DNA of 64,000 bases from Methylophilaceae bacterium (GTDB lineage Bacteria; Pseudomonadota; Gammaproteobacteria; Burkholderiales; Methylophilaceae): contig JBATAW010000017.1 in assembly GCA_049662045.1 (NCBI GenBank), positions 30,431 to 94,430 on the forward strand, written 5' to 3'. Position 1 is the stretch's first letter. The number at the start of each line of letters is the position of its first letter. This document shows positions 1-64,000 of this stretch, piece by piece. A program made the translations under genes and the position numbers. Under the pieces are notes generated by a model. That model made no database searches. It was not told the origin of the DNA and was given only the letters and a program-made list of their open reading frames with translations.

Positions 1-521
1 TTGACCAAGCGGTCATGCAACGCCATGGTCAAACTGGCGGAATGGGCCTGATCCTAGCTGCGCTGCCTGAGCATCACCACCTGTTCCGCTCGGTCAGCAA
101 AAACCCGTTGCTACTGAAAGAGACCTTGGACGTGAATCCCGATGCTATCTCGCTCGACGTATTACGTGAGCGCGCTTGGCAACTGATTCAGCCGTATTTC
201 TTAGATCGCTTGGCGGGTTTGGTCGACGCCTACGGCGCCGCTACTGGCAAAGCTCTGGGGTCGGATACACTGGGCGACATTGCCAAAGCCGCATGGGAGG
301 GACGCGTGGCGACTTTATTGATTGAAGCTGACAGAATTATTCCAGGTCATATCAACACCGTCACAGGCAAAGTGACCACTGGTCAGCTAGACGACCCAGA
401 GATGGATGATCTGCTCGATGATGTAGGCGAGCTGGTGCTAAGGGCGGGTGGTGATGTAGTCATGGTTCCTACCGAGCGCATGCCTACCACCACGGGTGTG
501 GCGGCAGTCTATCGATTTTGA
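1..521 (+). CDS. baeRF3-like (bacterial archaeo-eukaryotic release-factor-like) protein, C-terminal part; 5' end lies outside the window
   Basis: The frame is open from nt 3 with no stop before the listed Met at 15, so the gene starts upstream of the window. The tail DDLLDDVGELVLRAGGDVVMVPTERMPTTTGVAAVYRF matches the conserved C-terminus of baeRF3-family proteins as I recall it. Hand-counted GC of the first 60 nt is about 57%, above the rest of the window. Confidence 0.5.
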   Translation, partial: DQAVMQRHGQTGGMGLILAALPEHHHLFRSVSKNPLLLKETLDVNPDAISLDVLRERAWQLIQPYFLDRLAGLVDAYGAATGKALGSDTLGDIAKAAWEGRVATLLIEADRIIPGHINTVTGKVTTGQLDDPEMDDLLDDVGELVLRAGGDVVMVPTERMPTTTGVAAVYRF

Positions 522-728
522 ATACTATCTAACGGCAGGTAGCCTGGTGATTTTTAAATCAACGTGGAGGATGAAGCCAATGAGGTTAGCTGCACTAGCT
601 CAGATCTCATTGATGCTTATTCTTGCATCAGATTTATCTTAACATTTTTAGCTTTTAATTGAAGCCGCACCTAAATAGCATTTGCCTTTATAATTTAAGC
701 TCTTAATTTCCAATCATTTTAGAAAGTC

Positions 729-1106
729 ATGACCATGAAAGTGATTCAAACTCCCAACGCCCCAGCAGCCATTGGCCCTTATGCGCAAGGGATTGCAATT
801 GGCAATTTTTTATTTACTTCTGGACAAATTCCACTTCGGCCAGATGGCACGCTTAATGACGGCGATATTACCGTGCAAACAACGCAGGTATTATCTAACT
901 TAAAAGGCGTGGTTGAAGCGGCAGGTGCCAGTTTAGATAAAGTGGTTAAAACCACGGTTTATTTGAAGAGTTTAGATGATTTTGTGTCCATGAATAAAGT
1001 CTATGGTGAGACTTTTGGCAGCCACACCCCCGCACGCTCAACGGTGCAAGTGGCTAAATTGCCACGCGATGTGTTGGTTGAAATTGAAGCGATAGTCGCT
1101 TTGTGA
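729..1106 (+). CDS. ridA: RidA/YjgF-family reactive enamine/imine deaminase
   Basis: 125 aa. Typical RidA N-terminus APAAIGPYAQGI...FTSGQIP and C-terminal ARSTVQVAKLPRDVLVEIEAIV. Confidence 0.9.
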   Translation: MTMKVIQTPNAPAAIGPYAQGIAIGNFLFTSGQIPLRPDGTLNDGDITVQTTQVLSNLKGVVEAAGASLDKVVKTTVYLKSLDDFVSMNKVYGETFGSHTPARSTVQVAKLPRDVLVEIEAIVAL

Positions 1107-1131
1107 TTGTAGCTTTGTAGTATATTGCTTT

Positions 1132-1148
1132 GCAATATCAAGCTTAAT
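1132..1148. terminator. Weak AT-rich hairpin between convergent ridA and the aminotransferase gene
   Basis: ATATTGC-ttt-GCAATAT, a 7-bp stem in the 53-nt convergent spacer. There is no clear U-tract on either side. Confidence 0.25.
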
Positions 1149-1159
1149 AGCTTAAGCCG

Positions 1160-2518
1160 CTAATCTTGTACGGTGAGTTCTTTTAGGCAGTCAGTAAAAT
1201 TTGTCACCAGTTTGGTGACATCCGCCCGTGTGGTGGATGGGCAGATCAACATCATGTTGTGAAAAGGCGTGAGCAATACACCGCGATTAAGCAAATATAA
1301 GTGAATGGCGTTTTCTAAAGTTTCATTTTGCGCAGCGCGCGCTTGAGCGGCGTTTTTGGGCGCTGTTTCGCAAAATTGCAGCTCAAGTCTTGCGCCCATG
1401 CGTGAAATTTGCCACGGTAACGTAAATGCGTTAATGGCGTTAAATAATGCATCTTCTAAATGCTTTGCTAGCGCTAGCATGTGTTCATAGGCGGCTTTTG
1501 TTGCTACTTCGGTTAAAGTAGCGTGTATGGCGGCAAGCGTCATCATGTTGCCCGATAATGTGGTGCCAATGCCAGAGTGCCCAGCAGGCGCGGCATCTTT
1601 AGCGGTTTGCATGCGCGCTGCCATGGCCGCGCTAAAACCATAAGCGGCAGCGGGTAGGCCACCCGCAATCGGTTTGCCCACCACGATAAAGTCTGGCGTA
1701 ATATTGTTCGCTTTTGCCCAGCCACCATGCGCGGTTGAAATGGTATGTGTTTCATCTAATATCAATAAGGTGTCGTATTTTGTGCAAAGCTTGCGTAAGT
1801 TTTCAATAAAGCCAGCTTTGGGTAATACCATACCGCAATTGGTTAACGCAGGCTCTGTGAGAAGGGCTGCAAACTCGCCACTTGCTAAGGCTTGCTCTAC
1901 AACGTTTAAGTCATTAAATGGTAGGGCAACGGTGTGTAAGCCTAAGTCGTACACTTGGCCGAGCAAGCTCGCACGGTTTTCAGTTTTGTCGCCCACAACA
2001 TCCACCATGGTGTCATCTACCGTACCATGATAACAGCCATCAAATACCAATAATTTTTGACGGTTAGTCACCGCACGCGCCCACCTTAAAACAAAACGAT
2101 TTGCATCTGTTGCGGTGGTGGCAAGTTGCCAAAAGGCTAAGCCAAAAAAATTTTCTAACGCTTTGCCCACCGCAGGGGCTAATGTCGATGGCAACATAGT
2201 GGTAAAGCCTTGATTGGCTTGTGCTGTAATGGCCTGCGCCACAGCGTGCGGACTATGCCCAAACATTGCGCCTGTATCGCCTAAGCAAAAGTCGGTGTAG
2301 TCTATATCATCTGCACACCAAAAATGCGCCCCTTGTGCATGGCTAACAAACAGGGGAGTAGGTGATCCCCAATCGTTCATCCAGTGCATAGGCACACCAT
2401 ATAAAAAATGCTGGCTTGTGCCTTTAGCTAGTTTTGCTGAGTTTGGATGTAACGTTAAAAAACGCGCACGTTCATTAGTTAAAATACGTGCTGCATTACT
2501 ATTAATAAGCGGATTCAT
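1160..2518 (-). CDS. Class-III PLP-dependent aminotransferase (glutamate-1-semialdehyde aminomutase-like)
   Basis: 452 aa. Fold-type-I class III signatures LILDETHT and VVGKPIAGGLP (PLP-lysine context). Substrate cannot be assigned by eye. Confidence 0.8.
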   Translation of the reverse strand: MNPLINSNAARILTNERARFLTLHPNSAKLAKGTSQHFLYGVPMHWMNDWGSPTPLFVSHAQGAHFWCADDIDYTDFCLGDTGAMFGHSPHAVAQAITAQANQGFTTMLPSTLAPAVGKALENFFGLAFWQLATTATDANRFVLRWARAVTNRQKLLVFDGCYHGTVDDTMVDVVGDKTENRASLLGQVYDLGLHTVALPFNDLNVVEQALASGEFAALLTEPALTNCGMVLPKAGFIENLRKLCTKYDTLLILDETHTISTAHGGWAKANNITPDFIVVGKPIAGGLPAAAYGFSAAMAARMQTAKDAAPAGHSGIGTTLSGNMMTLAAIHATLTEVATKAAYEHMLALAKHLEDALFNAINAFTLPWQISRMGARLELQFCETAPKNAAQARAAQNETLENAIHLYLLNRGVLLTPFHNMMLICPSTTRADVTKLVTNFTDCLKELTVQD

Positions 2519-2830
2519 CGGTTATATAAAGCTCACTAGTGGTTTAAGATTTTGTATCATTAAATATTACTTTAAGCCCAACATTGCTACAATATTTTAC
2601 CTATAATGCGCATTAAACACATAACAATTATGAGGCACTTTTAAAGAATCATGCATTTGCTTATTTATCGACGAGTGGTTTTTTAATCGTACCCACCATC
2701 TTTTTTTTGATATATGGATGTTACATATTTGCGTTATCATTGAAATCAGCAAAACTTTTATTAAAAAAACAGGAAAAATAACATGCGTAATAAAGCACCA
2801 ACTAATTCGGAATACAAACAAAGCAATATC

Positions 2831-3322
2831 ATGACCAAGATTTTATTTGGCAGCCGTTGGTTGCAACTACCACTTTATTTGGGTTTAATTGTTGCCCAAG
2901 CCGTTTATGTGTTCTTTTTTGGTGTTGAGTTAACACACTTAGTTGCCACGGCTAATAAAATTACTGAAGCAGACATTATGCTTATTGTATTAGGGCTAAT
3001 TGACGTGGTGATGATTTCAAATTTACTGATTATGGTGATTGTAGGCGGTTATGAAACCTTTGTTTCGCGTCTTTACCTTGAAGGGCATCCTGATGAGCCA
3101 GGCTGGCTATCGCATGTGAATGCTAATTTGCTCAAAGTAAAATTAGCGACTGCAATTATTGGCATTTCATCCATTCACCTATTAAAAACCTTTATCAATG
3201 CGCAAAACCTAAGCGATAAAGTGCTGATTTCGCAAACGGTGATTCACATGACGTTCGTATTTTCAGCTGTAGCCATCGCCTATATTGATAAATTGATGGC
3301 GCCCTCACAGGTGCATCATTAA
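2831..3322 (+). CDS. yqhA: UPF0114 family inner-membrane protein YqhA
   Basis: Colinear with E. coli YqhA from SRWLQLPLYLGL through GGYETFVS and SSIHLLKTF. I chose the start at MTKILFG (2831) rather than the track Met at 2783. Confidence 0.8.
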   Translation: MTKILFGSRWLQLPLYLGLIVAQAVYVFFFGVELTHLVATANKITEADIMLIVLGLIDVVMISNLLIMVIVGGYETFVSRLYLEGHPDEPGWLSHVNANLLKVKLATAIIGISSIHLLKTFINAQNLSDKVLISQTVIHMTFVFSAVAIAYIDKLMAPSQVHH

Positions 3323-3331
3323 AGCTTTCAC

Positions 3332-4648
3332 ATGCTTGCCAACGATTTAAAACTCACGCAAAACTCTTATTACGCCGCGAGTGCAAATCTACAGGCAAGT
3401 TATCCCACCTTACAGGGCGATATTGAAGCGGATGTTTGTGTGGTGGGTGGCGGCTTTGCGGGGCTATCTGCGGCAATAGCGTTAGCGGATCGCGGTTACA
3501 AAGTGGTGGTGTTAGAGGCGCATCATATTGGCTTTGGCGCGAGTGGGCGCAATGGCGGGCAGCTCATTGCTGGGTTGGCGTGTGAACAAGATGTGATTGA
3601 AAACGCCATTGGGTTGCAAGCCGCTAAACAAGTGTGGGATATGTCTCTTGAAGCCTTAAAATTGGTGCATGAACGCGTCAAGCGGTTTGATATTCAGTGT
3701 GATTTAACCGCTGGCTTTATGGGGGTAGCGGTCAATGCTAAAAAAACCACTCAGCTAAACCAATGGCTAGACGGCATGGCGCAGCGTTATGGCTATGATG
3801 TAGAACGCATTACGCCCAACGATGTTAGCCAATGGATAGGCAGCCCGCGTTATCACAGTGGTTATTATGATAAAAGTGGTGGGCACCTGCACCCACTCAA
3901 TTATTGCCTAGGTTTGGCAAAAGGCGCAGCCAGCTTAGGCGTGCAGACTTTTACACAATCAGCCGTTACCAGCTTACGGCAAGGTGAAACAGCGCAATTA
4001 ACCACGGCAAATGGGCTGGTTAAAGCTAAATTTGTCGTGTTGGCGGGTAATATGTATTTGCCAGAAATATCGCCAACATTAGCGCCTAGCTTAAACAAAC
4101 GCATTATGCCAGTCGGCACCTATATTATTGCCACTGAGCCAATAGATGCGCACTTAGCCGCAACTTTAATCCCTAGTAACGCCGCGATATGCGACACAAA
4201 TTTTATATTAGATTATTTTAGATTTTCGGCTAATAACGCAAAAAACAAGCCTCGTTTGATTTATGGCGGGCGTGTGAGCTATAGCGCCATGACGCCCTAT
4301 AAGCTCACGGGCAAAATGCAAGCGCGCATGGCTGAAACCTTTCCACAACTTAAAAATACTAAAGTGGAATACACTTGGGGTGGCTTTGTGGACATCACCA
4401 TGAACCGCGCACCAGACTTTGGGCGTGTTGCCAACAACGTTTATTATTTGCAAGGCTTTTCTGGCCACGGCGTTGCGCTAACCGGCTTGGCAGGGCAGTT
4501 GGTCGCCGAAGCCATTGCTGGGCAATCGCAGCGCTTAGATGTGTTTGCGAAAATTAAACACCATGATTTTCAAGGTGGAAAATGGCTACGCACACCAGCG
4601 CTTGTGCTGGGCATGGCATGGTATCAATTACGCGATGTGCTGGGTTGA
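3332..4648 (+). CDS. puuB: FAD-dependent gamma-glutamylputrescine oxidoreductase (PuuB-like)
   Basis: 438 aa. N-terminal dinucleotide fold DVCVVGGGFAGLSAA, DAO-family length, and location inside the puu/pot/gab cluster. Confidence 0.8.
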   Translation: MLANDLKLTQNSYYAASANLQASYPTLQGDIEADVCVVGGGFAGLSAAIALADRGYKVVVLEAHHIGFGASGRNGGQLIAGLACEQDVIENAIGLQAAKQVWDMSLEALKLVHERVKRFDIQCDLTAGFMGVAVNAKKTTQLNQWLDGMAQRYGYDVERITPNDVSQWIGSPRYHSGYYDKSGGHLHPLNYCLGLAKGAASLGVQTFTQSAVTSLRQGETAQLTTANGLVKAKFVVLAGNMYLPEISPTLAPSLNKRIMPVGTYIIATEPIDAHLAATLIPSNAAICDTNFILDYFRFSANNAKNKPRLIYGGRVSYSAMTPYKLTGKMQARMAETFPQLKNTKVEYTWGGFVDITMNRAPDFGRVANNVYYLQGFSGHGVALTGLAGQLVAEAIAGQSQRLDVFAKIKHHDFQGGKWLRTPALVLGMAWYQLRDVLG

Positions 4649-5870: not shown

Positions 5871-5989
5871 TTTGACACTGGGCGGGTTCAAGACCTAAAT
5901 TCGTAAGCAGCCAACACCGCCCCAAGCTAGCGTAGCGTGGGCAGTTAGGTTAGTGATGAATTTGTGAAGCCCAACCTTTATAACTTAGT

Positions 5990-6025
5990 ATGGCGTGGTA
6001 TCAATTGCGCGATGCGCTAGGTTAA
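5990..6025 (+). pseudogene. Relic second copy of the last 11 codons plus stop of puuB
   Basis: ATGGCGTGGTATCAATTGCGCGATGCGCTAGGTTAA versus puuB 4613-4648 ATGGCATGGTATCAATTACGCGATGTGCTGGGTTGA. That is 31/36 identical and in frame (MAWYQLRDALG* versus MAWYQLRDVLG*). No similarity is visible upstream of 5990. Confidence 0.8.
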
Positions 6026-6044
6026 TTAGTGCCGATAGAATGTC

Positions 6045-6166
6045 CGAGAAAATTTTATGCCGCTTTACCCGCAAGGGGCATCACCATTCTCGCTAAATGC
6101 TAGCGCATTAAGTCGAATGTGATAAGCCAGTATCTAAGCGGCTTGCAGGACATCGAAATAATGTGG
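6045..6166 (+). repeat. REP/MITE-like element, long class, copy A
   Basis: Same terminal arms as the short class (CGAGAAAATTTTATGCC ... CATCGAAATAATG) with a ~60-nt internal insert. It is homologous along its full length to 51258-51380. Confidence 0.85.
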
Positions 6167-6376
6167 GCTAAAAATTAATCTTTTTATAATCTCTTTTGTC
6201 AATGTAACTTCGCTGTATATTTTATAGTTTTTGTGCGTTAAATCGCTTGCTTGAGTAGTGCTTACAAGGGTAGTATGTGCTTGAGCGTGTGGAAATAATT
6301 TCTGCCCAATTAAATAAAATAAAGAGACTTGAAGTAAATAGTAACGGTGTGATTGTTACTAACCAGTAGCCTAGCT

Positions 6377-7150
6377 ATGAAAACCAAGCATAAAAAACCC
6401 GTTGTTTTATTGCCAGCAGATGTGAAACAGCTAGGCGATTACCCCTTTCACGCAGTGGGGCAGAAATATATTTTAGCCGTCGCTGATGCCGCTGAAGCCA
6501 CTCCACTATTAATCCCCGCGATTGCCGATGCTTTAGACATTGATGATCTCATCGCGTTAGCGGATGGCATTGTGCTTACGGGTTCAGTCTCTAATTTACA
6601 TCCCTCACATTTTGGTCAAACAGTGCTTGACCCAGCCTTACCGCTTGACCCTGCGCGGGATGCCTTAACTTTAAAGCTGATTCATGCGGCGATAGAAAAT
6701 AGCGTGCCTTTATTAGCGATTTGTCGTGGATTTCAAGAGCTAAACGTGGCGTATGGGGGTAGTTTGCACCAAGCGGTTCATACGGTAACTGGCTTGAATG
6801 ACCATCGTGAAGATAAAGATGCCATTATGGAAGCGCAATATGCAACAGCGCATGCGGTGCATTTAACGCAAGACGGCAAATTGGCCTATATTGTTAAGTC
6901 AGACAAAATGCTGGTGAACTCTTTACATGGGCAAGGGATTGATAAGTTAGGCCTAGATTTAACCATTGAAGCCACCTCGCCTGATGGCTTAATTGAGGCA
7001 ATTTCTGTTAACCATGCGCAAACATTTGCTTTGGGTGTGCAGTGGCATCCTGAGTGGCTGGTCATGGATAATCCGCAATATTTAGCTATTTTTAGAGCGT
7101 TTGGTGCGGCTTGCAAATTAAGAATGCGACGTCACGAACCACCTGATTAA
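6377..7150 (+). CDS. puuD: Gamma-glutamyl-gamma-aminobutyrate hydrolase (peptidase C26, class-I amidotransferase-like)
   Basis: Nucleophile elbow LAICRGFQELNV and the His motif GVQWHPE. I chose the ATG at 6377 (MKTKHKK) over the TTG at 6353. Confidence 0.9.
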   Translation: MKTKHKKPVVLLPADVKQLGDYPFHAVGQKYILAVADAAEATPLLIPAIADALDIDDLIALADGIVLTGSVSNLHPSHFGQTVLDPALPLDPARDALTLKLIHAAIENSVPLLAICRGFQELNVAYGGSLHQAVHTVTGLNDHREDKDAIMEAQYATAHAVHLTQDGKLAYIVKSDKMLVNSLHGQGIDKLGLDLTIEATSPDGLIEAISVNHAQTFALGVQWHPEWLVMDNPQYLAIFRAFGAACKLRMRRHEPPD

Positions 7151-7210
7151 TCGGTTGATGGCTTGTATAGGCAATAAATCAACATTAATTTAGGTGTTTT
7201 GGAGTAAAAA

Positions 7211-8596
7211 ATGACGCAAAAGAATTCGACGCATGCAACAACGGCAAATCATATCGACATGGATAAATGGTTAACCGATAACAATATTACTGAAGTGGAA
7301 TGTTTAGTACCAGACTTAACAGGTGTGGCACGTGGCAAAATTTTACCGCGTGAGAAATTTTCAACAGAGCGAGCAATGCGCTTACCAGAAGCAGTGTTTG
7401 GCATGACGGTGACAGGGGAATCGCCAGAAAATCACGAAGGTTATGACCGTGTATTTGGCTTTACAGATAAAGACATGGTGCTAGTGCCAGACCCAACCAC
7501 TTTACGGGTAGTGCCGTGGGCGCAAGACCCAACTGCGCAAGTGATTATGGATTGCTTTGACCATCAGGGTAAACCGATTGATTTTTCCCCCAGACATGTG
7601 TTGCGTCGTGTAACGCAGTTATACAAAGACTTAGGCTGGACGCCGATTGTTGCGCCAGAGTTAGAGTTTTATTTGCTAGAACGTAATACCAACCCAGATA
7701 TGGCATTAAGCCCACCAGTAGGGCGTAGTGGGCGTAAAGAAACTAGTCGGCAGTTATATAGTATTGATGCGGTGAATGAGTTTGACCCGCTTTTTGAAGA
7801 TATTTATGATTACTGTGACCTAATGGGCTTGGAGTTAGATACCTTGATTCACGAGTTTGGCGCGGGTCAAATGGAAATCAACTTTTTGCATGACGAGCCC
7901 ATGTTGCTGGCCGATAAAACCTTTTTCTTTAAACGTACCTTGCGAGAAGTAGCCATGCGCCATGGCATGTATGCCACTTTTATGGCAAAACCGATGCAAC
8001 ATGAACCAGGCTCTGCCATGCATATCCATCAAAGTGTGGTTGATACTAGTACTGGCCTTAATATTTTTAGCAAGCCAGATGGTGAGGCTTCCCCACTTTT
8101 CTTTAACTATATTGCCGGCTTACAAAAATACCTGCCATCTGCTATGGCTATTCTAGCCCCGTATGTGAATTCATATCGCCGAATTGTCAGAAATGGCGCG
8201 GCACCCATTAATATTGAGTGGGGCTATGATAACCGTACGGTGGGTATTCGCGTGCCTATTTCTGAGCCTGATGCCAGAAGAATAGAAAATCGTGTGGTGG
8301 GTGCGGATGCTAACCCATACCTTGCAATGGCCGTGACGTTGGCATGTGGTTATCTTGGCATAAAAGAAAAACTACAACCGACAGAAGTGACCACAGGCAG
8401 TGCGTATGCCTCAGACTACCAATTACCACGCGGCTTATCTGAGTCTATAAGAGCCTTAGAGGATGCAACGGCACTGCATGAAGTATTAGGTAAAAACTTT
8501 GTTGACGTTTATTTGGCGGTGAAAGATGCTGAGCATGATGAGTTTATGCGCGTGATTAGCCCATGGGAACGCGAACATCTTCTAATGCACGTTTAA
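7211..8596 (+). CDS. puuA: Gamma-glutamylputrescine synthetase (glutamine synthetase type III-like family)
   Basis: 461 aa. GS catalytic-domain motifs (EFGAGQMEIN, SAMHIHQS, NRTVGIRVP). Flanked by puuD and spuC. Confidence 0.9.
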   Translation: MTQKNSTHATTANHIDMDKWLTDNNITEVECLVPDLTGVARGKILPREKFSTERAMRLPEAVFGMTVTGESPENHEGYDRVFGFTDKDMVLVPDPTTLRVVPWAQDPTAQVIMDCFDHQGKPIDFSPRHVLRRVTQLYKDLGWTPIVAPELEFYLLERNTNPDMALSPPVGRSGRKETSRQLYSIDAVNEFDPLFEDIYDYCDLMGLELDTLIHEFGAGQMEINFLHDEPMLLADKTFFFKRTLREVAMRHGMYATFMAKPMQHEPGSAMHIHQSVVDTSTGLNIFSKPDGEASPLFFNYIAGLQKYLPSAMAILAPYVNSYRRIVRNGAAPINIEWGYDNRTVGIRVPISEPDARRIENRVVGADANPYLAMAVTLACGYLGIKEKLQPTEVTTGSAYASDYQLPRGLSESIRALEDATALHEVLGKNFVDVYLAVKDAEHDEFMRVISPWEREHLLMHV

Positions 8597-29121: not shown

Positions 29122-29147
29122 TAAAGATGTAGCGAAAAAGTAGAAGA

Positions 29148-29241
29148 GGCGAGCCTTGCCCTCGGCACTTGCTTAATAGTTGTGGCTGCTTGCTTCCGCA
29201 CCTGACCAAGTTGGCTACTTCACAATGCGAGGAGACCCGCC
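29148..29241 (-). ncRNA. ffs: Signal recognition particle RNA (small/4.5S type)
   Basis: The minus strand reads GGTCAGGTGCGGAAGCAAGCAGCC, matching the universal domain IV motif (E. coli GGUCAGGUCCGGAAGGAAGCAGCC). The 5' GGCGGGUCUCCUCG pairs with the 3' CGAGG..AGGCUCGCC. It lies directly upstream of dnaX, as in many bacteria. Confidence 0.85.
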
Positions 29242-33024: not shown

Positions 33025-33115
33025 GGAAGGGTGGATGAGCGGTTTAAGTCGCACGCCTGGAAAGCGTGTTTAGGTGAATAACCTAACGCGGGTTCGAATC
33101 CCGCCTCTTCCGCCA
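33025..33115 (+). tRNA. tRNA-Ser (anticodon GGA)
   Basis: Hand-folded. Acceptor GGAAGGG/CCTCTTC, anticodon stem CACGC/GCGTG with loop CTGGAAA, a long variable arm TAGGT..ACCTA, T-arm GCGGG-TTCGAAT-CCCGC, and an encoded CCA. Confidence 0.95.
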
Positions 33116-61250: not shown

Positions 61251-61279
61251 TTGACAAGCCCCCTACTCATCTTTATTAT
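61251..61279 (+). promoter_or_regulatory. Sigma-70 promoter for the tRNA-Ala/tRNA-Glu operon
   Basis: TTGACA (61251-56), a 17-nt spacer and TATTAT (61274-79), followed by the GC-rich discriminator TGCGCCTCGC typical of stringently controlled stable-RNA promoters. Confidence 0.55.
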
Positions 61280-61326: not shown

Positions 61327-61402
<76 letters not shown>

Positions 61403-61476
61403 TAAAGTAGTAAATTCATGCAAAAAAGCGTGTAATGTAGTAAAATACGGGTATTGCAAACTGCAATATTTCTTAG

Positions 61477-61552
61477 GTCCCCATCGTCTAGAGGCCTAGG
61501 ACACCTCCCTTTCACGGAGGCGACCGGGGTTCGAATCCCCGTGGGGACGCCA
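61477..61552 (+). tRNA. tRNA-Glu (anticodon TTC)
   Basis: GTCCCCATCGTCTAGAGGCCTAGGACA, anticodon stem CCTCC/GGAGG with loop CTTTCAC, T-arm GGGGTTCGAATCCCC, and an encoded CCA. Near-identical in architecture to E. coli tRNA-Glu. Confidence 0.95.
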
Positions 61553-63017
61553 TTAATTCCCCGCTAGATATTTTGTAAGTAATCTTACAGGTCATAGCGG
61601 GTGTGGCATTTAGTTCAATTTTATCAACCAGTGCGTTGATGAAGTCTTTAGCTGATGCTCTATCTGTCATATCAAGATTCTCAGATAATGTTTTGAGCAT
61701 TTTAGCAACATCTCTCTCTGAAATGGCCAAAAGTAACTTGTTGGCATTGTAGTCATTTTCTGCTTTATCGATTTCATCTAATAAATTGGTGCGTTGCTTT
61801 TCCAGTGTTTCTATTCTTGCCAATAAAGCTCTAGGATTTTCTATTTCTTCTAGTAAACATGTAAGCTTTTCAATTTTTAAGCTGATTTCGCTGACTTGTT
61901 TCTTGTAGGCCTTAATTTCAGTGTCCGGCACGGGTTGTGCGGCCTGGCGTGCGCATTTGGTGACGTCTTTGATAAAGTCTTCTGACTCTAAATCAGAGAT
62001 GACTTTGTTAAATATTGCATTTTCAATCTCTTCTTTTGAGTAACGCTTACCTTTTGCCACGCGATAGTAAACACCATCACAGCCATGCCATGCGTCACCT
62101 TCGGCATTGACCATGATGCCGCTGAGTAGAAAGTCCGATGCTGTTTTGTAGGGTTTGTGTGCGGTGTTTTCTAGCGTTTGCAGTATTGTCTCCGCTTCAT
62201 CAGTGTTGATAAGTGCTGAATGCGTGTCATGCTGAATCAACCATTCGTGACGAGGCCTGCGTTTAACACCACCTTTGTAGCCGCCACTGGATAGGCGTTC
62301 ATTTTGGACATTCCATACCGTGTGGCCAGCATAAGTCAGTGCATTCCATTCCATGCCAATCAGTGTGGATTGTGCTAGGTCAACCAAGCCACTTTCTTTG
62401 GCTGATTTAGATCGTGCGATGCCATTGGTTCTCAGTTTGAAGTAATGCGCCACTTTTTTAGCGTCTTCTGATAAGATGAGTTTTGATTTGGTGACAGGTT
62501 CACCGTCGCGTATGGCACCTGTCTCGTGATATTCAAGTTGATATCCAAGGGGTGCGCGACCCCCTGCCCGGAAACCTTGTTTAACATTCTCAGCCATGCC
62601 TGCTAGCCCCTTTTCTTTACTCATTAAACTGTGCAGTTGATCAAAAGCTTGCATGACGGAGCGTATCACTACGTCAACCACACTGCCCGTTTCGGGCATT
62701 TTAGAATATAAAATTTTAATGTTACGTTTGTCGCACTCAAAATGAACCGCGTGCGCCAGATATTGATTGCGCGCAATACGTGATGTATCCATGACGAGTA
62801 GATATTGCCAGCCACGGTCTTTATTCTTGAATTGTGTAAGCAGTGCCTGAAAGGCTGGGCGATTGTCATCTTTGCCAGACTCCACCGCATCAGCATATTC
62901 ACCAACTACGGTAAATGATTTTGCTTTTGCCATGGCTTGCAACTCACGTCGCTGCACGTCAATGGAGACGTCAGATCGATCTTTTGAGGATCTTAGATAT
63001 AACACAGCATTATTCAT
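61512..63017 (-). CDS. Large serine recombinase (resolvase/invertase N-domain, recombinase domain, coiled coil)
   Basis: N-terminal catalytic motif AVLYLRSSKDRSD...VQRREL, DTSRIARN, a central recombinase domain, and a coiled-coil-rich C-terminus. The last ~13 codons and the stop codon are encoded by the complement of the 3' half of tRNA-Glu. Confidence 0.85.
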   Translation of the reverse strand: MNNAVLYLRSSKDRSDVSIDVQRRELQAMAKAKSFTVVGEYADAVESGKDDNRPAFQALLTQFKNKDRGWQYLLVMDTSRIARNQYLAHAVHFECDKRNIKILYSKMPETGSVVDVVIRSVMQAFDQLHSLMSKEKGLAGMAENVKQGFRAGGRAPLGYQLEYHETGAIRDGEPVTKSKLILSEDAKKVAHYFKLRTNGIARSKSAKESGLVDLAQSTLIGMEWNALTYAGHTVWNVQNERLSSGGYKGGVKRRPRHEWLIQHDTHSALINTDEAETILQTLENTAHKPYKTASDFLLSGIMVNAEGDAWHGCDGVYYRVAKGKRYSKEEIENAIFNKVISDLESEDFIKDVTKCARQAAQPVPDTEIKAYKKQVSEISLKIEKLTCLLEEIENPRALLARIETLEKQRTNLLDEIDKAENDYNANKLLLAISERDVAKMLKTLSENLDMTDRASAKDFINALVDKIELNATPAMTCKITYKISSGELMASPRGFEPRSPP

Positions 63018-63120
63018 GGTGTTTATTATAATCCCATAAAAACCAAGTAAGTAGTAGTGATTTAATGAGTATCTGGGTTATTGCAGACTAAAAAGTCAAG
63101 TACTATGGCTTGATATGGCA

Positions 63121-63450
63121 TTACTCAAACAAATCAGCGTGCGTACCTGTACGAACAAAGATGAGTTGTTCTATTTTACTGCTACTATCTAACCTGTAGG
63201 CTAATAAGAAATCTCCGCCCACATGGCATTCACGATGCCCATCCCAATCACCACCTAAGGGATGGTCTAACCATTCTGGGCCAAGCGGCGCCTCATTAGC
63301 GATTAGAAGCAGCATCACTTCTTTCAGGCGCTTCATATCATAGCGCCCAGAATGTAACAGCCGATCCCAGTCTTTTAAAAAGGATTTTGTGTAATCTGAT
63401 CCGCGTGGCAGCCTAGCACGTTTACTTGCTGCTGTTTTTTTCGAGGTCAT
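63121..63450 (-). CDS. yafQ: Type II toxin, YafQ/RelE family mRNA interferase
   Basis: YTKSFLKDWDRL..., LDHPLGGDWDGHRECHVGGDFLLAYRL and IFVRTGTHADLF match the YafQ family consensus. The start is uncertain (63450 or 63462) and overlaps the antitoxin 3' end. Confidence 0.75.
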   Translation of the reverse strand: MTSKKTAASKRARLPRGSDYTKSFLKDWDRLLHSGRYDMKRLKEVMLLLIANEAPLGPEWLDHPLGGDWDGHRECHVGGDFLLAYRLDSSSKIEQLIFVRTGTHADLFE

Positions 63451-63700
63451 TGAATAGTTCATCAGCCGTTGCAAATCGTACTTTACGTGCGCTAGCAATT
63501 GCATCAGCTTCTATCATAGCTGCATGTGTTTCAGGGTTGGGTACTTTGAGTGCAAAAGGCAATTGTTTTTCCACAACCACTCTCGTTAGAAAAACGCGCA
63601 CAGCGTCAGATACGGAGAGTCCCATAGAAGCCAAAGTCTCGGTTGCTTCCAACTTGATTTTATCGTCCACTCTAACATGAACCATGCTTGACGTTGCCAT
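63422..63700 (-). CDS. dinJ: Type II antitoxin, RelB/DinJ family (ribbon-helix-helix)
   Basis: MATSSMVHVRVDDKIKLEATETLASMGLSVSDAVRVFLTRVV is the typical DinJ N-terminus. The ATG at 63700 is preceded by AGGAGG. Confidence 0.8.
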   Translation of the reverse strand: MATSSMVHVRVDDKIKLEATETLASMGLSVSDAVRVFLTRVVVEKQLPFALKVPNPETHAAMIEADAIASARKVRFATADELFNDLEKNSSK

Positions 63701-63964
63701 AAATGCACCTCCTTTATTTGAGTTACATTGTATCTCATGTATCAGAAAAAACAAGAATTAATTATGAAGAAGATGTAACTGATTTAAATGGCTCTTTTTG
63801 AGGTTGTGGAAATAACTGGCATTTTTGGAACAGAAATTAAGTGGTCTTTTTAATAAAAATACGCGTACTTACGTGAGTATCGGCAGTCCACCCATTATTT
63901 TATCCTGTGGTTATTTGTAGCATTTATTGTAGCCTCATTGTGGTCACACGTAAAATTGAAATCT

Positions 63965-63992
63965 TAATAATTTAGTACGTACTAAATTATTA
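63965..63992. promoter_or_regulatory. Perfect 28-bp palindrome at the window edge
   Basis: TAATAATTTAGTAC|GTACTAAATTATTA is an exact reverse complement with no spacer. It lies in the non-coding stretch upstream of dinJ inside the integrated element. Confidence 0.5.
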
Positions 63993-64000
63993 ACCTAGTG

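Follow-up and report, generated by a model that had tools for sequence, protein, structure and literature searches.

A large serine integrase gene ending within tRNA-Glu: probable insertion of a genomic island by an enzyme with attP inside its own reading frame

Results

The DNA analysed here is a stretch of 64,000 nucleotides (the window) of contig JBATAW010000017.1 from a Methylophilaceae bacterium, in which the gene of a large serine integrase, probably that of a genomic island, runs into a tRNA-Glu gene. The tRNA-Glu(UUC) gene (anticodon ttc) lies on the plus strand at 61477..61552, as found by ARAGORN and the Rfam tRNA model (59.2 bits), and the host gene adjoining this target is a tRNA-Ala(GGC) on the same strand (61327..61402, ARAGORN; Rfam 62.9 bits); almost every occupied site keeps the Ala-Glu pair. 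On the minus strand, the open reading frame (ORF) list gives a 501-residue serine integrase at 61512..63017, which overlaps tRNA-Glu by 41 nt (61512-61552), making the tRNA gene and the end of the integrase a chimeric product of two DNAs in the interpretation developed below. A preliminary description of the sequence had already stated this overlap, and ARAGORN, Rfam and the ORF list agree with it. The C-terminus of the integrase reads ...ELMASPRGFEPRSPP, in which ASP comes from reading the acceptor 3' strand of tRNA-Glu in reverse and GFEP from reading the T-loop (GGTTCGAATCC) in the same way, so that the earlier statement that the last residues are an antisense reading of the T-arm and acceptor is confirmed by direct mapping. 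The same is true of the stop codon: the anticodon TTC occupies 61511-61513, and the TGA is the complement of 61512-61514 (tca; U35-C36-A37), covering two of the anticodon bases.

The motifs YLRSS and DTSRIARN, from which the protein had been recognised as a serine recombinase, are present, the protein matches the Pfam Resolvase N-terminal domain (PF00239, E 3.1e-19, residues 4-148), and the residues Y6-L-R8-S-S10 and D76-T-S-R79..R82 are conserved over 30 members of the family, which provides the Ser nucleophile and the conserved Arg/Asp of a large serine recombinase catalytic domain. Sequence matches in the PDB are to the catalytic domains of TnpX and TP901-1. An AlphaFold run on the 30-sequence alignment gave a model with a pLDDT of 79.5, comprising the catalytic domain, an alpha-E helix (111-145), a recombinase domain (158-285) and a coiled coil of ~120 residues; beta hairpins at ~301-320 and 463-480 flank the long helices (327-446), as in solved enzymes, and the last 17 residues of the prophage form are disordered. 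The top Foldseek matches are full-length, namely Bxb1 (9iu2), SPbeta-type (9y66, 9dxh) and PhiC31 (9rah), with E from 1e-16 to 1e-14. These alignments, together with the detection of Pfam Recombinase (PF07508) in 30 of the 30 aligned members at E<=1 (best 1.1e-07), identify the recombinase domain. No Pfam Zn_ribbon_recom match was obtained, NCBIfam holds no model for the clade (best XisF, residues 45-469, 64 bits against a cutoff of 375), and PHROG 95 'integrase' matches at E 2e-46. By its fold and by its att sites, the window protein is classed here as a large serine recombinase. Enzymes of this class recombine attP with attB unaided by host factors and require a recombination directionality factor for excision; no such factor was identified.

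A protein search with the window integrase returned 1,524 homologues at E<=1e-5, whose C-termini form two classes. Short forms (~498-501 aa) end in ...(M/V/L)ASP-RGFEPRSPP, -RGFEPLLPP, -TRFELVLPP and alike, and long forms (~509-522 aa) proceed from ...ASPR into about 20 other residues. Our genome-contig set comprises 80 beta- and gammaproteobacterial loci (79 complete ORFs), including Methylotenera, Rhodocyclaceae, Burkholderiales, Nitrosospira/Nitrosovibrio, Thiobacillus, Gallionellaceae, Lysobacter, Thermomonas and Methylophaga. Carriers among isolates include Nitrosovibrio tenuis Nv1, Nitrosospira multiformis Nl18 and Ampullimonas aquatilis LMG 28208. Of the 79 complete ORFs, 63 end inside a tRNA-Glu gene encoded on the other strand, and in 62 of these the overlap measures exactly 41 nt, so that the arrangement in the window is not due to chance; four further genome loci carry the same tail at a contig end. 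Where tRNA-Glu genes stand in tandem, only one copy is overlapped by the integrase ORF. Two occupied sites have the anticodon CTC rather than TTC, and an in-frame TGA is still made there because the stop uses C36-A37 and base 35. A single member ORF enters tRNA-Ala(GGC), with the tail ...EVSGIEPLTSCMPCKRSPS (L073:1706-1781, a Betaproteobacteria metagenome-assembled genome, JAGVUA010000038), possibly a target switch within the same tRNA pair.

The viral set consists of IMG/VR contigs, many of 35-42 kb, with 72 complete ORFs, of which 49 have the long form or another non-tRNA tail; short forms in these contigs are located at provirus ends. In phage-like contigs of 35-45 kb the long tail occurs with no tRNA close by. 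A long-form integrase (P0010) lies inside a 42.8-kb phage-like contig that also encodes a CHAP lysin, Minor_tail_Z, a primase and the reverse transcriptase of a diversity-generating retroelement, and no tRNA is present at the end of its gene. A subgroup represented by P0076 and P0114 (alignment A1, ~489-491 aa) ends in ...YGVPTNF, with neither the ASP motif nor a tail, and presumably has its attP outside the gene or a different target. Among 50,697 GenBank phage records no close relative was found (best match 27% identity), and an exact-sequence look-up of the window integrase gave no record.

In the free forms the 3' end of the integrase gene has the layout of a typical serine-integrase attP. 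At locus L003 it reads GTGGGGTTAGTGTGGCGT-CCCC-AA-GGTT-ACGCGACACTAACCCCAC, a 46-bp imperfect palindrome, and among 46 distinct long-form attP-type sites the best dyad centre falls on the same dinucleotide in 42, formed by the last base of TGGCGTCCCCA and the base that follows. The arms match at 13.6 of 22 positions around this common centre, against 5.8 +/- 2.0 at other offsets, and the central dinucleotide is AC in 26 sites, AA in 13, AG in three, TA in three and CG in one. Without exception the left arm has the same inner 10 nt (TGGCGTCCCC), which are the complement of GGGGAC-G-CCA, that is, of the acceptor 3' strand, the discriminator base and the CCA of tRNA-Glu; the invariant (M/V/L)-A-S-P motif of the protein follows from this constraint on the DNA. 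In both P-type arms (P and P') the motif GGGG[AT] starts at -20, and in 69 of the 78 tRNA-derived B arms it starts at -15, where it corresponds to GGGGTTC of the T-stem/T-loop, which places it 5 bp further out in attP than in the tRNA half-site. Rutherford et al. described the motif for the zinc-ribbon domain of serine integrases as shifted 5 bp towards the centre in attB (PMC3783163). Short dyad sites, a 2-bp centre and a 5-bp motif shift, the hallmarks of large serine recombinase att sites (PMC3783163), are thus all found here. In tRNA-Glu itself, the 3' strands of the T-stem and of the acceptor together form a natural palindromic core, TCCCC-NN-GGGGA. The overlap of attP with the 3' end of the recombinase gene, which had been proposed from the window alone, is seen directly in the phage-like contigs and can be reconstructed from the complete islands described below. 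At L003 a diversity-generating retroelement (RVT_1, bAvd and two Lcl_C-domain proteins; 5941-8529) lies directly 3' of attP in convergent orientation.

Transferred to the window by register, the central dinucleotide is predicted at 61541..61542 (GT on the plus strand, AC on the recombinase strand), at tRNA positions 65-66. The putative B half-site of attL, from the host, occupies 61515..61540 on the plus strand and spans the T-arm, with GGGGTT at 61526-61531 (-15..-10 from the centre). The P half-site, from the element, would be 61543..61568; its minus strand reads TAGCGGGGAATTAATGGCGTCCCC, carries GGGGA at 61558-61562 (-20..-16), fits the family consensus and also codes for the integrase residues ...SGELMASP. 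The prediction that strands are exchanged at tRNA positions 65/66 (61541-61542) is based on dyad symmetry, on the blocks of identity between attL and attR and on the identity between the window and a second contig of the same element (L177) rightward from 61520. With its DNA starting at ~61542, the element would therefore supply only GGGGACGCCA (~10-11 nt) of tRNA-Glu. We infer that positions 1-65/66 of the tRNA (61477-61541/2) belong to the host and that the acceptor 3' strand, the discriminator and the CCA (~61542-61552) come from the element. Likewise, integrase residues 1-492 are predicted to be element-encoded, and R493-P501 (RGFEPRSPP) with the TGA to be host-encoded, as antisense of tRNA-Glu. 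The preliminary description had placed the left end of the element at 61512 and had the element regenerate the whole 41-nt 3' half of the tRNA. That end moves to a predicted 61542, and regeneration stands for GGGGACGCCA but not for the T-arm, the variable region and the anticodon-stem bases, which would be host DNA.

Complete small islands with both ends were found in four relatives, namely L030 (8.5 kb), L048 (7.2 kb), L067 (4.9 kb) and L168 (7.1 kb). In each, the far end runs from host flank through TGGCGTCCCCA(C/A)GG into in-frame tail codons, and orphan tails such as ...RRAEQFPTGQSPAIRVIRSLKLAA in L168 and ...RNRRAA in L030 can be read there. These four show the signature used by Islander, with an intact tRNA at one end, a displaced fragment at the other and an integrase inside. 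Since attL and attR are identical only at offsets 0 to 13-18 from the CCA end (a block of ~14-19 bp), the crossover must lie within that block. The genes of the L168 island are ParE, two HTH proteins, a P2 gpA-like replication initiator and the serine recombinase, and no other recombinase is encoded in its 7.1 kb; the host flank at its far end carries a hairpin and T-run that would terminate the tRNA. Two further loci show more complex structures. The 9.9-kb element at L064 has an integrase of its own that ends in tRNA-Glu, and at its far end (1200-1580) lie ~300 nt from the 3' part of a recombinase gene, closed by an in-frame stop, with an attP-like junction (P arm and tail ...GLVAIPTILARTLAKVA*) behind them. 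A tandem or earlier insertion seems to have left this remnant, which would mean that occupied sites can be reused. At L016:6162-6215 only the 3' part of tRNA-Glu (~49 nt) stands behind the integrase, 9.7 kb of unrelated DNA come next, and a second copy of the same tRNA stretch lies at the contig end (15922-15976). It seems that another, unrelated element entered this tRNA-Glu at a point further 5', which would make the tRNA a shared hot spot.

The visible part of the window's own element (61542..64000) runs off the window, as had been anticipated. Upstream of the integrase, on the minus strand, it carries as cargo a YafQ/ParE-type toxin (63121..63474; YafQ_toxin, E 5e-26) and a RelB/DinJ-type antitoxin (63422..63700; RelB, E 2.4e-17), both also called as genes in L177. 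This Logan contig of 6,352 nt was found through the RelB protein and extends the window by 3,738 nt. Its positions 1-3640 add a type II methyltransferase of 531 aa (Eco57I-like, PADLOC E 1e-139), a PtuB-like HNH protein of 191 aa, a FitA-like/PIN (VapBC-type) pair and, cut off by the contig end, an ORF of 241 aa without a family match. This continuation is possibly a restriction-modification or Septu-like defence module, and the visible cargo resembles that of a defence and toxin-antitoxin island more than that of a prophage. Between L177 and the window, identity is 100% over 61520-64000, seven positions differ in 61477-61519, and the 36-nt Ala-Glu spacer of L177 is unrelated. Two differences in the acceptor 5' strand of its tRNA-Glu are uncompensated in the 3' strand, leaving an A2.A71 mismatch (Rfam 47.8 bits), and the sole difference between the two integrases is residue 500, in the predicted host-encoded tail. 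Such a pattern is expected if the element, on entering another tRNA-Glu gene, brought its 3' acceptor strand along.

The closest relative is a Methylotenera metagenome-assembled genome whose integrase is 94% identical and occupies the same SMC-QueF-tRNA-Ala-tRNA-Glu site. At the nucleotide level the two loci are similar to a point 45 nt upstream of int and no further, and the relative has other cargo (methyltransferases, ParE/PaaA2 and a PLD-helicase). Amino-acid identity with the window is 93.8% for Int, 89% for QueF and 68% for SMC, and this conservation of Int above the flanking genes fits horizontal movement. The claim that an element is integrated in tRNA-Glu is thus upheld by the attL and attP states, the attR sites of relatives and the differing cargo at the same site. 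A search for an empty site in a close relative found none, the exact look-up of QueF giving one short contig only.

The tails of the free forms share a peculiar ending. After ASP, long tails have a median length of 21 aa, and of the 99 distinct ones 79 end in Ala and 57 in Ala-Ala (LAA 29, RAA 14, KAA 10). The terminal alanines are encoded by any of the four GCN codons, each of the three stop codons occurs after them, and they lie outside the 24-26-bp P' arm; this variation of codons and stops, at a position beyond the P' arm, argues that the ending is selected at the protein level. The AlphaFold predictions give a disordered long-form tail with a weak terminal helix and a pLDDT <50 for both tails, which offers no support for a tail that docks as a structure.

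Upstream of the tRNA-Ala/tRNA-Glu pair, in host DNA, motif prediction places a strong promoter-like site (TTGACA-17-TATTAT, 11/12) at 61251..61279 on the plus strand. No terminator-like site was predicted on that strand 3' of tRNA-Glu (61553-63500), so that in the prophage state transcription of the tRNA operon may continue, unterminated, across int in antisense. Displacement of the original terminator to attR, as in L168:380-425, is expected. Other host genes of the window, unrelated to the element, are a small SRP RNA (29145-29241, minus strand, 66.7 bits) and a tRNA-Ser(GGA) (33025-33115, plus strand).

Discussion

The interpretation that we favour, with a probability of about 0.8, is that the window holds the attL end of a genomic island put into tRNA-Glu(UUC) by its own large serine integrase, the attP of which lies in the integrase gene. 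It builds on features that were computed here, namely the chimeric ORF, the two C-terminal states of the family, the attP/attB architecture, the attR sites with orphan tails and the large-serine-recombinase fold, and it supports the interpretation first given for this sequence, with the junction moved to 61541/61542. In the proposed mechanism, the free circular form would carry a dyad-symmetric attP of ~50 bp within the last int codons, its left arm ending in TGGCGTCCCC and reading ..(M/V/L)-A-S-P, and the tRNA palindrome TCCCC-NN-GGGGA would serve as attB. Following strand exchange at the dinucleotide of tRNA positions 65/66, GGGGACGCCA from the element would complete the tRNA at attL, and the int frame would continue for nine codons into the host tRNA antisense, to an in-frame TGA provided by the anticodon loop. 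The original tail of ~20 codons would be orphaned at attR, beside the displaced tRNA 3' end and terminator, and the two isoforms of the enzyme would thereby report the state of integration.

Several observations weigh against this interpretation. The window protein scores too low for PF07508 (14.1 bits, E 0.059; cutoff 21.1), and the zinc-ribbon-like region of the 30-member alignment has no conserved cysteines and thus no Cys4 set. The exact crossover is placed from symmetry and identity blocks rather than mapped, and the palindromic TA centre of a few sites would not fix orientation. The attR of the window's element is not seen in the window, in L001 or in L177. With up to two mismatches allowed, the only copy of the tRNA 3' end in the window is the tRNA itself; there is no second copy within 10 kb upstream in L001/L002 or in the 3.7-kb L177 extension, and hence no attR within 6.2 kb. 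A scan of viral and metagenome collections with the pattern TGGCGTCCCCAC N11-13 AATTCCCC found attP and attR sites in relatives, and with them the complete island L168; the far end of the window's element was not among the matches. The direct repeat of the tRNA 3' segment that had been foreseen is present in L030, L048, L067 and L168, and absent from the window and L177. The far end is expected to consist of host flank, TGGCGTCCCCACGG and an in-frame tail that, by symmetry with the P arm, should contain approximately GAATTCCCC ~12 nt past the centre. The source runs (of the window and of the L020 isolate locus) are kept as assembler contigs only, in which rare excision junctions are invisible. 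Finally, in the only public run with the window (SRR28060500, which contains the element), contigs match the host flank exactly as far as 61356 and the element exactly from 61520 on, but the tRNA-Ala 3' part, spacer and tRNA-Glu body between them are different (L177 and L176 against window 61357-61519). The host contig of this run ends inside tRNA-Ala, and no contig covers 61403-61476, the window's own spacer. The disagreement between the window and L177 could reflect an assembly chimera across tRNA repeats, or two insertion contexts.

Other explanations of the locus differ widely in how well they account for these data. The absence of attR within 6.2 kb would be natural if the window's element were an immobile remnant of a mobile family, its far end lost or decayed; family remnants do exist, as the 300-nt 3' recombinase fragment with an attP-like junction in L064 illustrates, and the visible cargo consists of toxin-antitoxin and defence genes, not phage genes. 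We nevertheless regard this as rather unlikely, given that Int is intact with all its catalytic motifs, that the P arm fits the family consensus and that a second contig, whose tRNA body is different, matches the element part at 100% identity. A recombinase that has simply always stood beside tRNA-Glu, as ancestral and immobile synteny, might explain why the same overlap recurs in dozens of beta- and gammaproteobacteria, and the preliminary description had regarded a fixed, non-mobile overlap in relatives as contrary to its reading. Recurrence of the overlap does not, however, imply that it is fixed; it is the signature of a site-specific family. Fixed synteny is rejected on account of the free attP forms in phage-like contigs, the bounded islands of 4.9-8.5 kb with attR and the differing cargo right beside a 94%-identical int, and it is made still more improbable by an Int more conserved than the flanking housekeeping genes and by tandem tRNA-Glu loci in which only one copy is overlapped. 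An equally slight chance is left to the serine recombinase being a passenger, such as a resolvase or invertase, on an element inserted by another enzyme, for instance a tyrosine integrase, for which tRNA 3' ends are the classic targets (PMC4383910); most of the window's element is unseen, and tRNA-Glu is also used by an unrelated element in L016. A tyrosine integrase as the inserter was rejected, however, because the junction lies inside the int 3' end in ~100 loci, with dyad symmetry and the serine-type 5-bp motif shift, and because the complete L168 island has no other recombinase; moreover, the block of identity is just ~14-19 bp.

Accepting that the serine integrase inserts its element into tRNA-Glu, what the exchange of tails means can be read in several ways. 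Nothing at all may follow from it, if attP has merely been compacted into the 3' end of the gene and both tails are dispensable. In agreement with such a neutral overlap, both tails are predicted disordered (pLDDT <50), the first ~8 tail codons are accounted for by P' arm DNA (the IP/FP/NP motif being the complement of GGGG[AT]), tail length is about that of random termination, and the P0076/P0114 subgroup stops earlier, without ASP or tail. We consider it a serious possibility, though not the likelier side of the question: 58% of the distinct long tails end in Ala-Ala and 80% in Ala, across otherwise dissimilar tails and with all GCN and stop codons, which points to selection on the amino acids. 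It is improbable, in our view, that the tails act as a directionality switch, the free tail being needed for, or permitting, attP x attB and the tRNA-derived tail biasing the enzyme to attL x attR excision, as a substitute for or partner of a recombination directionality factor. The isoforms correlate perfectly with the two substrates, and the tail directly follows the last strands of the zinc-ribbon-like domain bearing the coiled coil, which governs directionality in known serine integrases (PMC3783163). Against this, AlphaFold docks neither tail, and the prophage tail is set by the tRNA and varies with the host anticodon stem, so that it could not be tuned by the element.

Our best guess from the tail sequences is that the free-form integrase is a ClpXP-type (ssrA-like) substrate and that integration removes the signal. 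More broadly, we may tentatively hypothesize that a large clade dedicated to tRNA-Glu senses its integration state through its own reading frame, the -LAA tail making the free enzyme short-lived or, like MuA, a ClpX substrate, and the swap resetting its stability and possibly its directionality; we give this a fair chance, though less than an even one. The direction of any change in stability is uncertain, since the prophage tail of the window ends in Pro-Pro-UGA, a context prone to termination stalling. Hayes, Bose and Sauer are said to have reported in 2002 that Pro-Pro-UGA can itself provoke stalling and SsrA tagging.

The literature that we searched contains no description of serine integrases that target tRNA-Glu or have attP in their own gene, and this widespread tRNA-Glu family is apparently undescribed. 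Within that searchable literature, both the use of a tRNA gene as a dedicated target and the position of attP inside the integrase's own reading frame are new. Serine integrases have been stated not to be known to target tRNA genes, and Islander-type tools restrict integration in tRNA genes to tyrosine integrases (PMC4383910). Other pipelines define serine integrases by Pfam PF07508 (PMC12884075, PMC13626063), and the TIGER resource marks 'Serine Core' islands as possible false positives (PMC12424338). The clade has probably been missed by integrase mining, most of its members having no Pfam Recombinase match at the gathering threshold. The working rule is accordingly revised, in that integration into tRNA genes is not solely the domain of tyrosine integrases. 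A serine-integrase layout with free and prophage isoforms also offers a testable form of recombination-coupled control, parallel to integration-dependent immunity and acting on the integrase; if the sensor reading is true, the stability of the integrase, and possibly its directionality, would be reset by the recombination event itself. In practical terms, the family provides pairs of enzyme and attP with a natural attB of ~40 bp in a highly conserved tRNA, which integration regenerates. Many Beta- and Gammaproteobacteria possess this attB, among them methylotrophs, nitrifiers and sulfur oxidisers in which genetic engineering is difficult.

Compared with known systems, the enzyme resembles the PhiC31, Bxb1, A118/LI, SPbeta and TP901-1 integrases in its resolvase-type catalytic domain, alpha-E helix, recombinase domain, beta hairpins with coiled coil and length of ~500 aa, and its sites resemble theirs in an attP of ~50 bp with an imperfect dyad around a central dinucleotide and a distal motif 5 bp closer in attB. 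Unlike these phage integrases, the tRNA-Glu family targets and regenerates a tRNA gene, has its attP inside the integrase coding sequence, mostly falls below threshold for Pfam Recombinase and has no conserved zinc-binding cysteines. Int of the PhiRSM-type filamentous phages of Ralstonia is likewise of the serine family, with a 13-nt core (TGGCGGAGAGGGT) that equals the 3' end of tRNA-Ser and lies in reverse orientation beside int (PMC3816273). That enzyme, however, is small and resolvase/invertase-like (~200 aa), without recombinase, zinc-ribbon and coiled-coil domains, its tRNA is a different one and its attP is intergenic (ORF14/ORF15), whereas the window integrase has 501 aa, recombinase and coiled-coil domains and an intragenic attP. 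The SSV-type ('suicidal') archaeal integrases share an attP inside the integrase ORF and tRNA targets (PMC7253208). They are tyrosine recombinases whose int is split in two, and here a serine recombinase exchanges only its last 9-20 residues, at the C-terminal tail, and keeps its domains intact. A parallel in working is the integration-dependent immunity of BPs, Brujita and Charlie (Broussard et al. 2013, as reviewed in PMC9262239). In both cases attP lies in the 3' end of a phage gene and attB at a regenerated tRNA 3' end, the C-terminus of the protein is replaced by integration, a stop codon is made at the junction and virally encoded forms carry an ssrA-like -LAA; the sequence pattern of the BPs type is present here in the 57 of 99 long tails that end in -AA and in the loss of the tail at attL. 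The likeness is one of working only, since attP here lies in a serine integrase gene and not in a repressor gene. In the BPs type the split gene is the repressor, the integrase is of the tyrosine family, the common core is 35 bp and the function of the degron has been demonstrated, whereas in the tRNA-Glu family the gene concerned is that of the integrase itself, the core is ~14 bp, the tail and stop come from tRNA antisense and the degron is a putative one.

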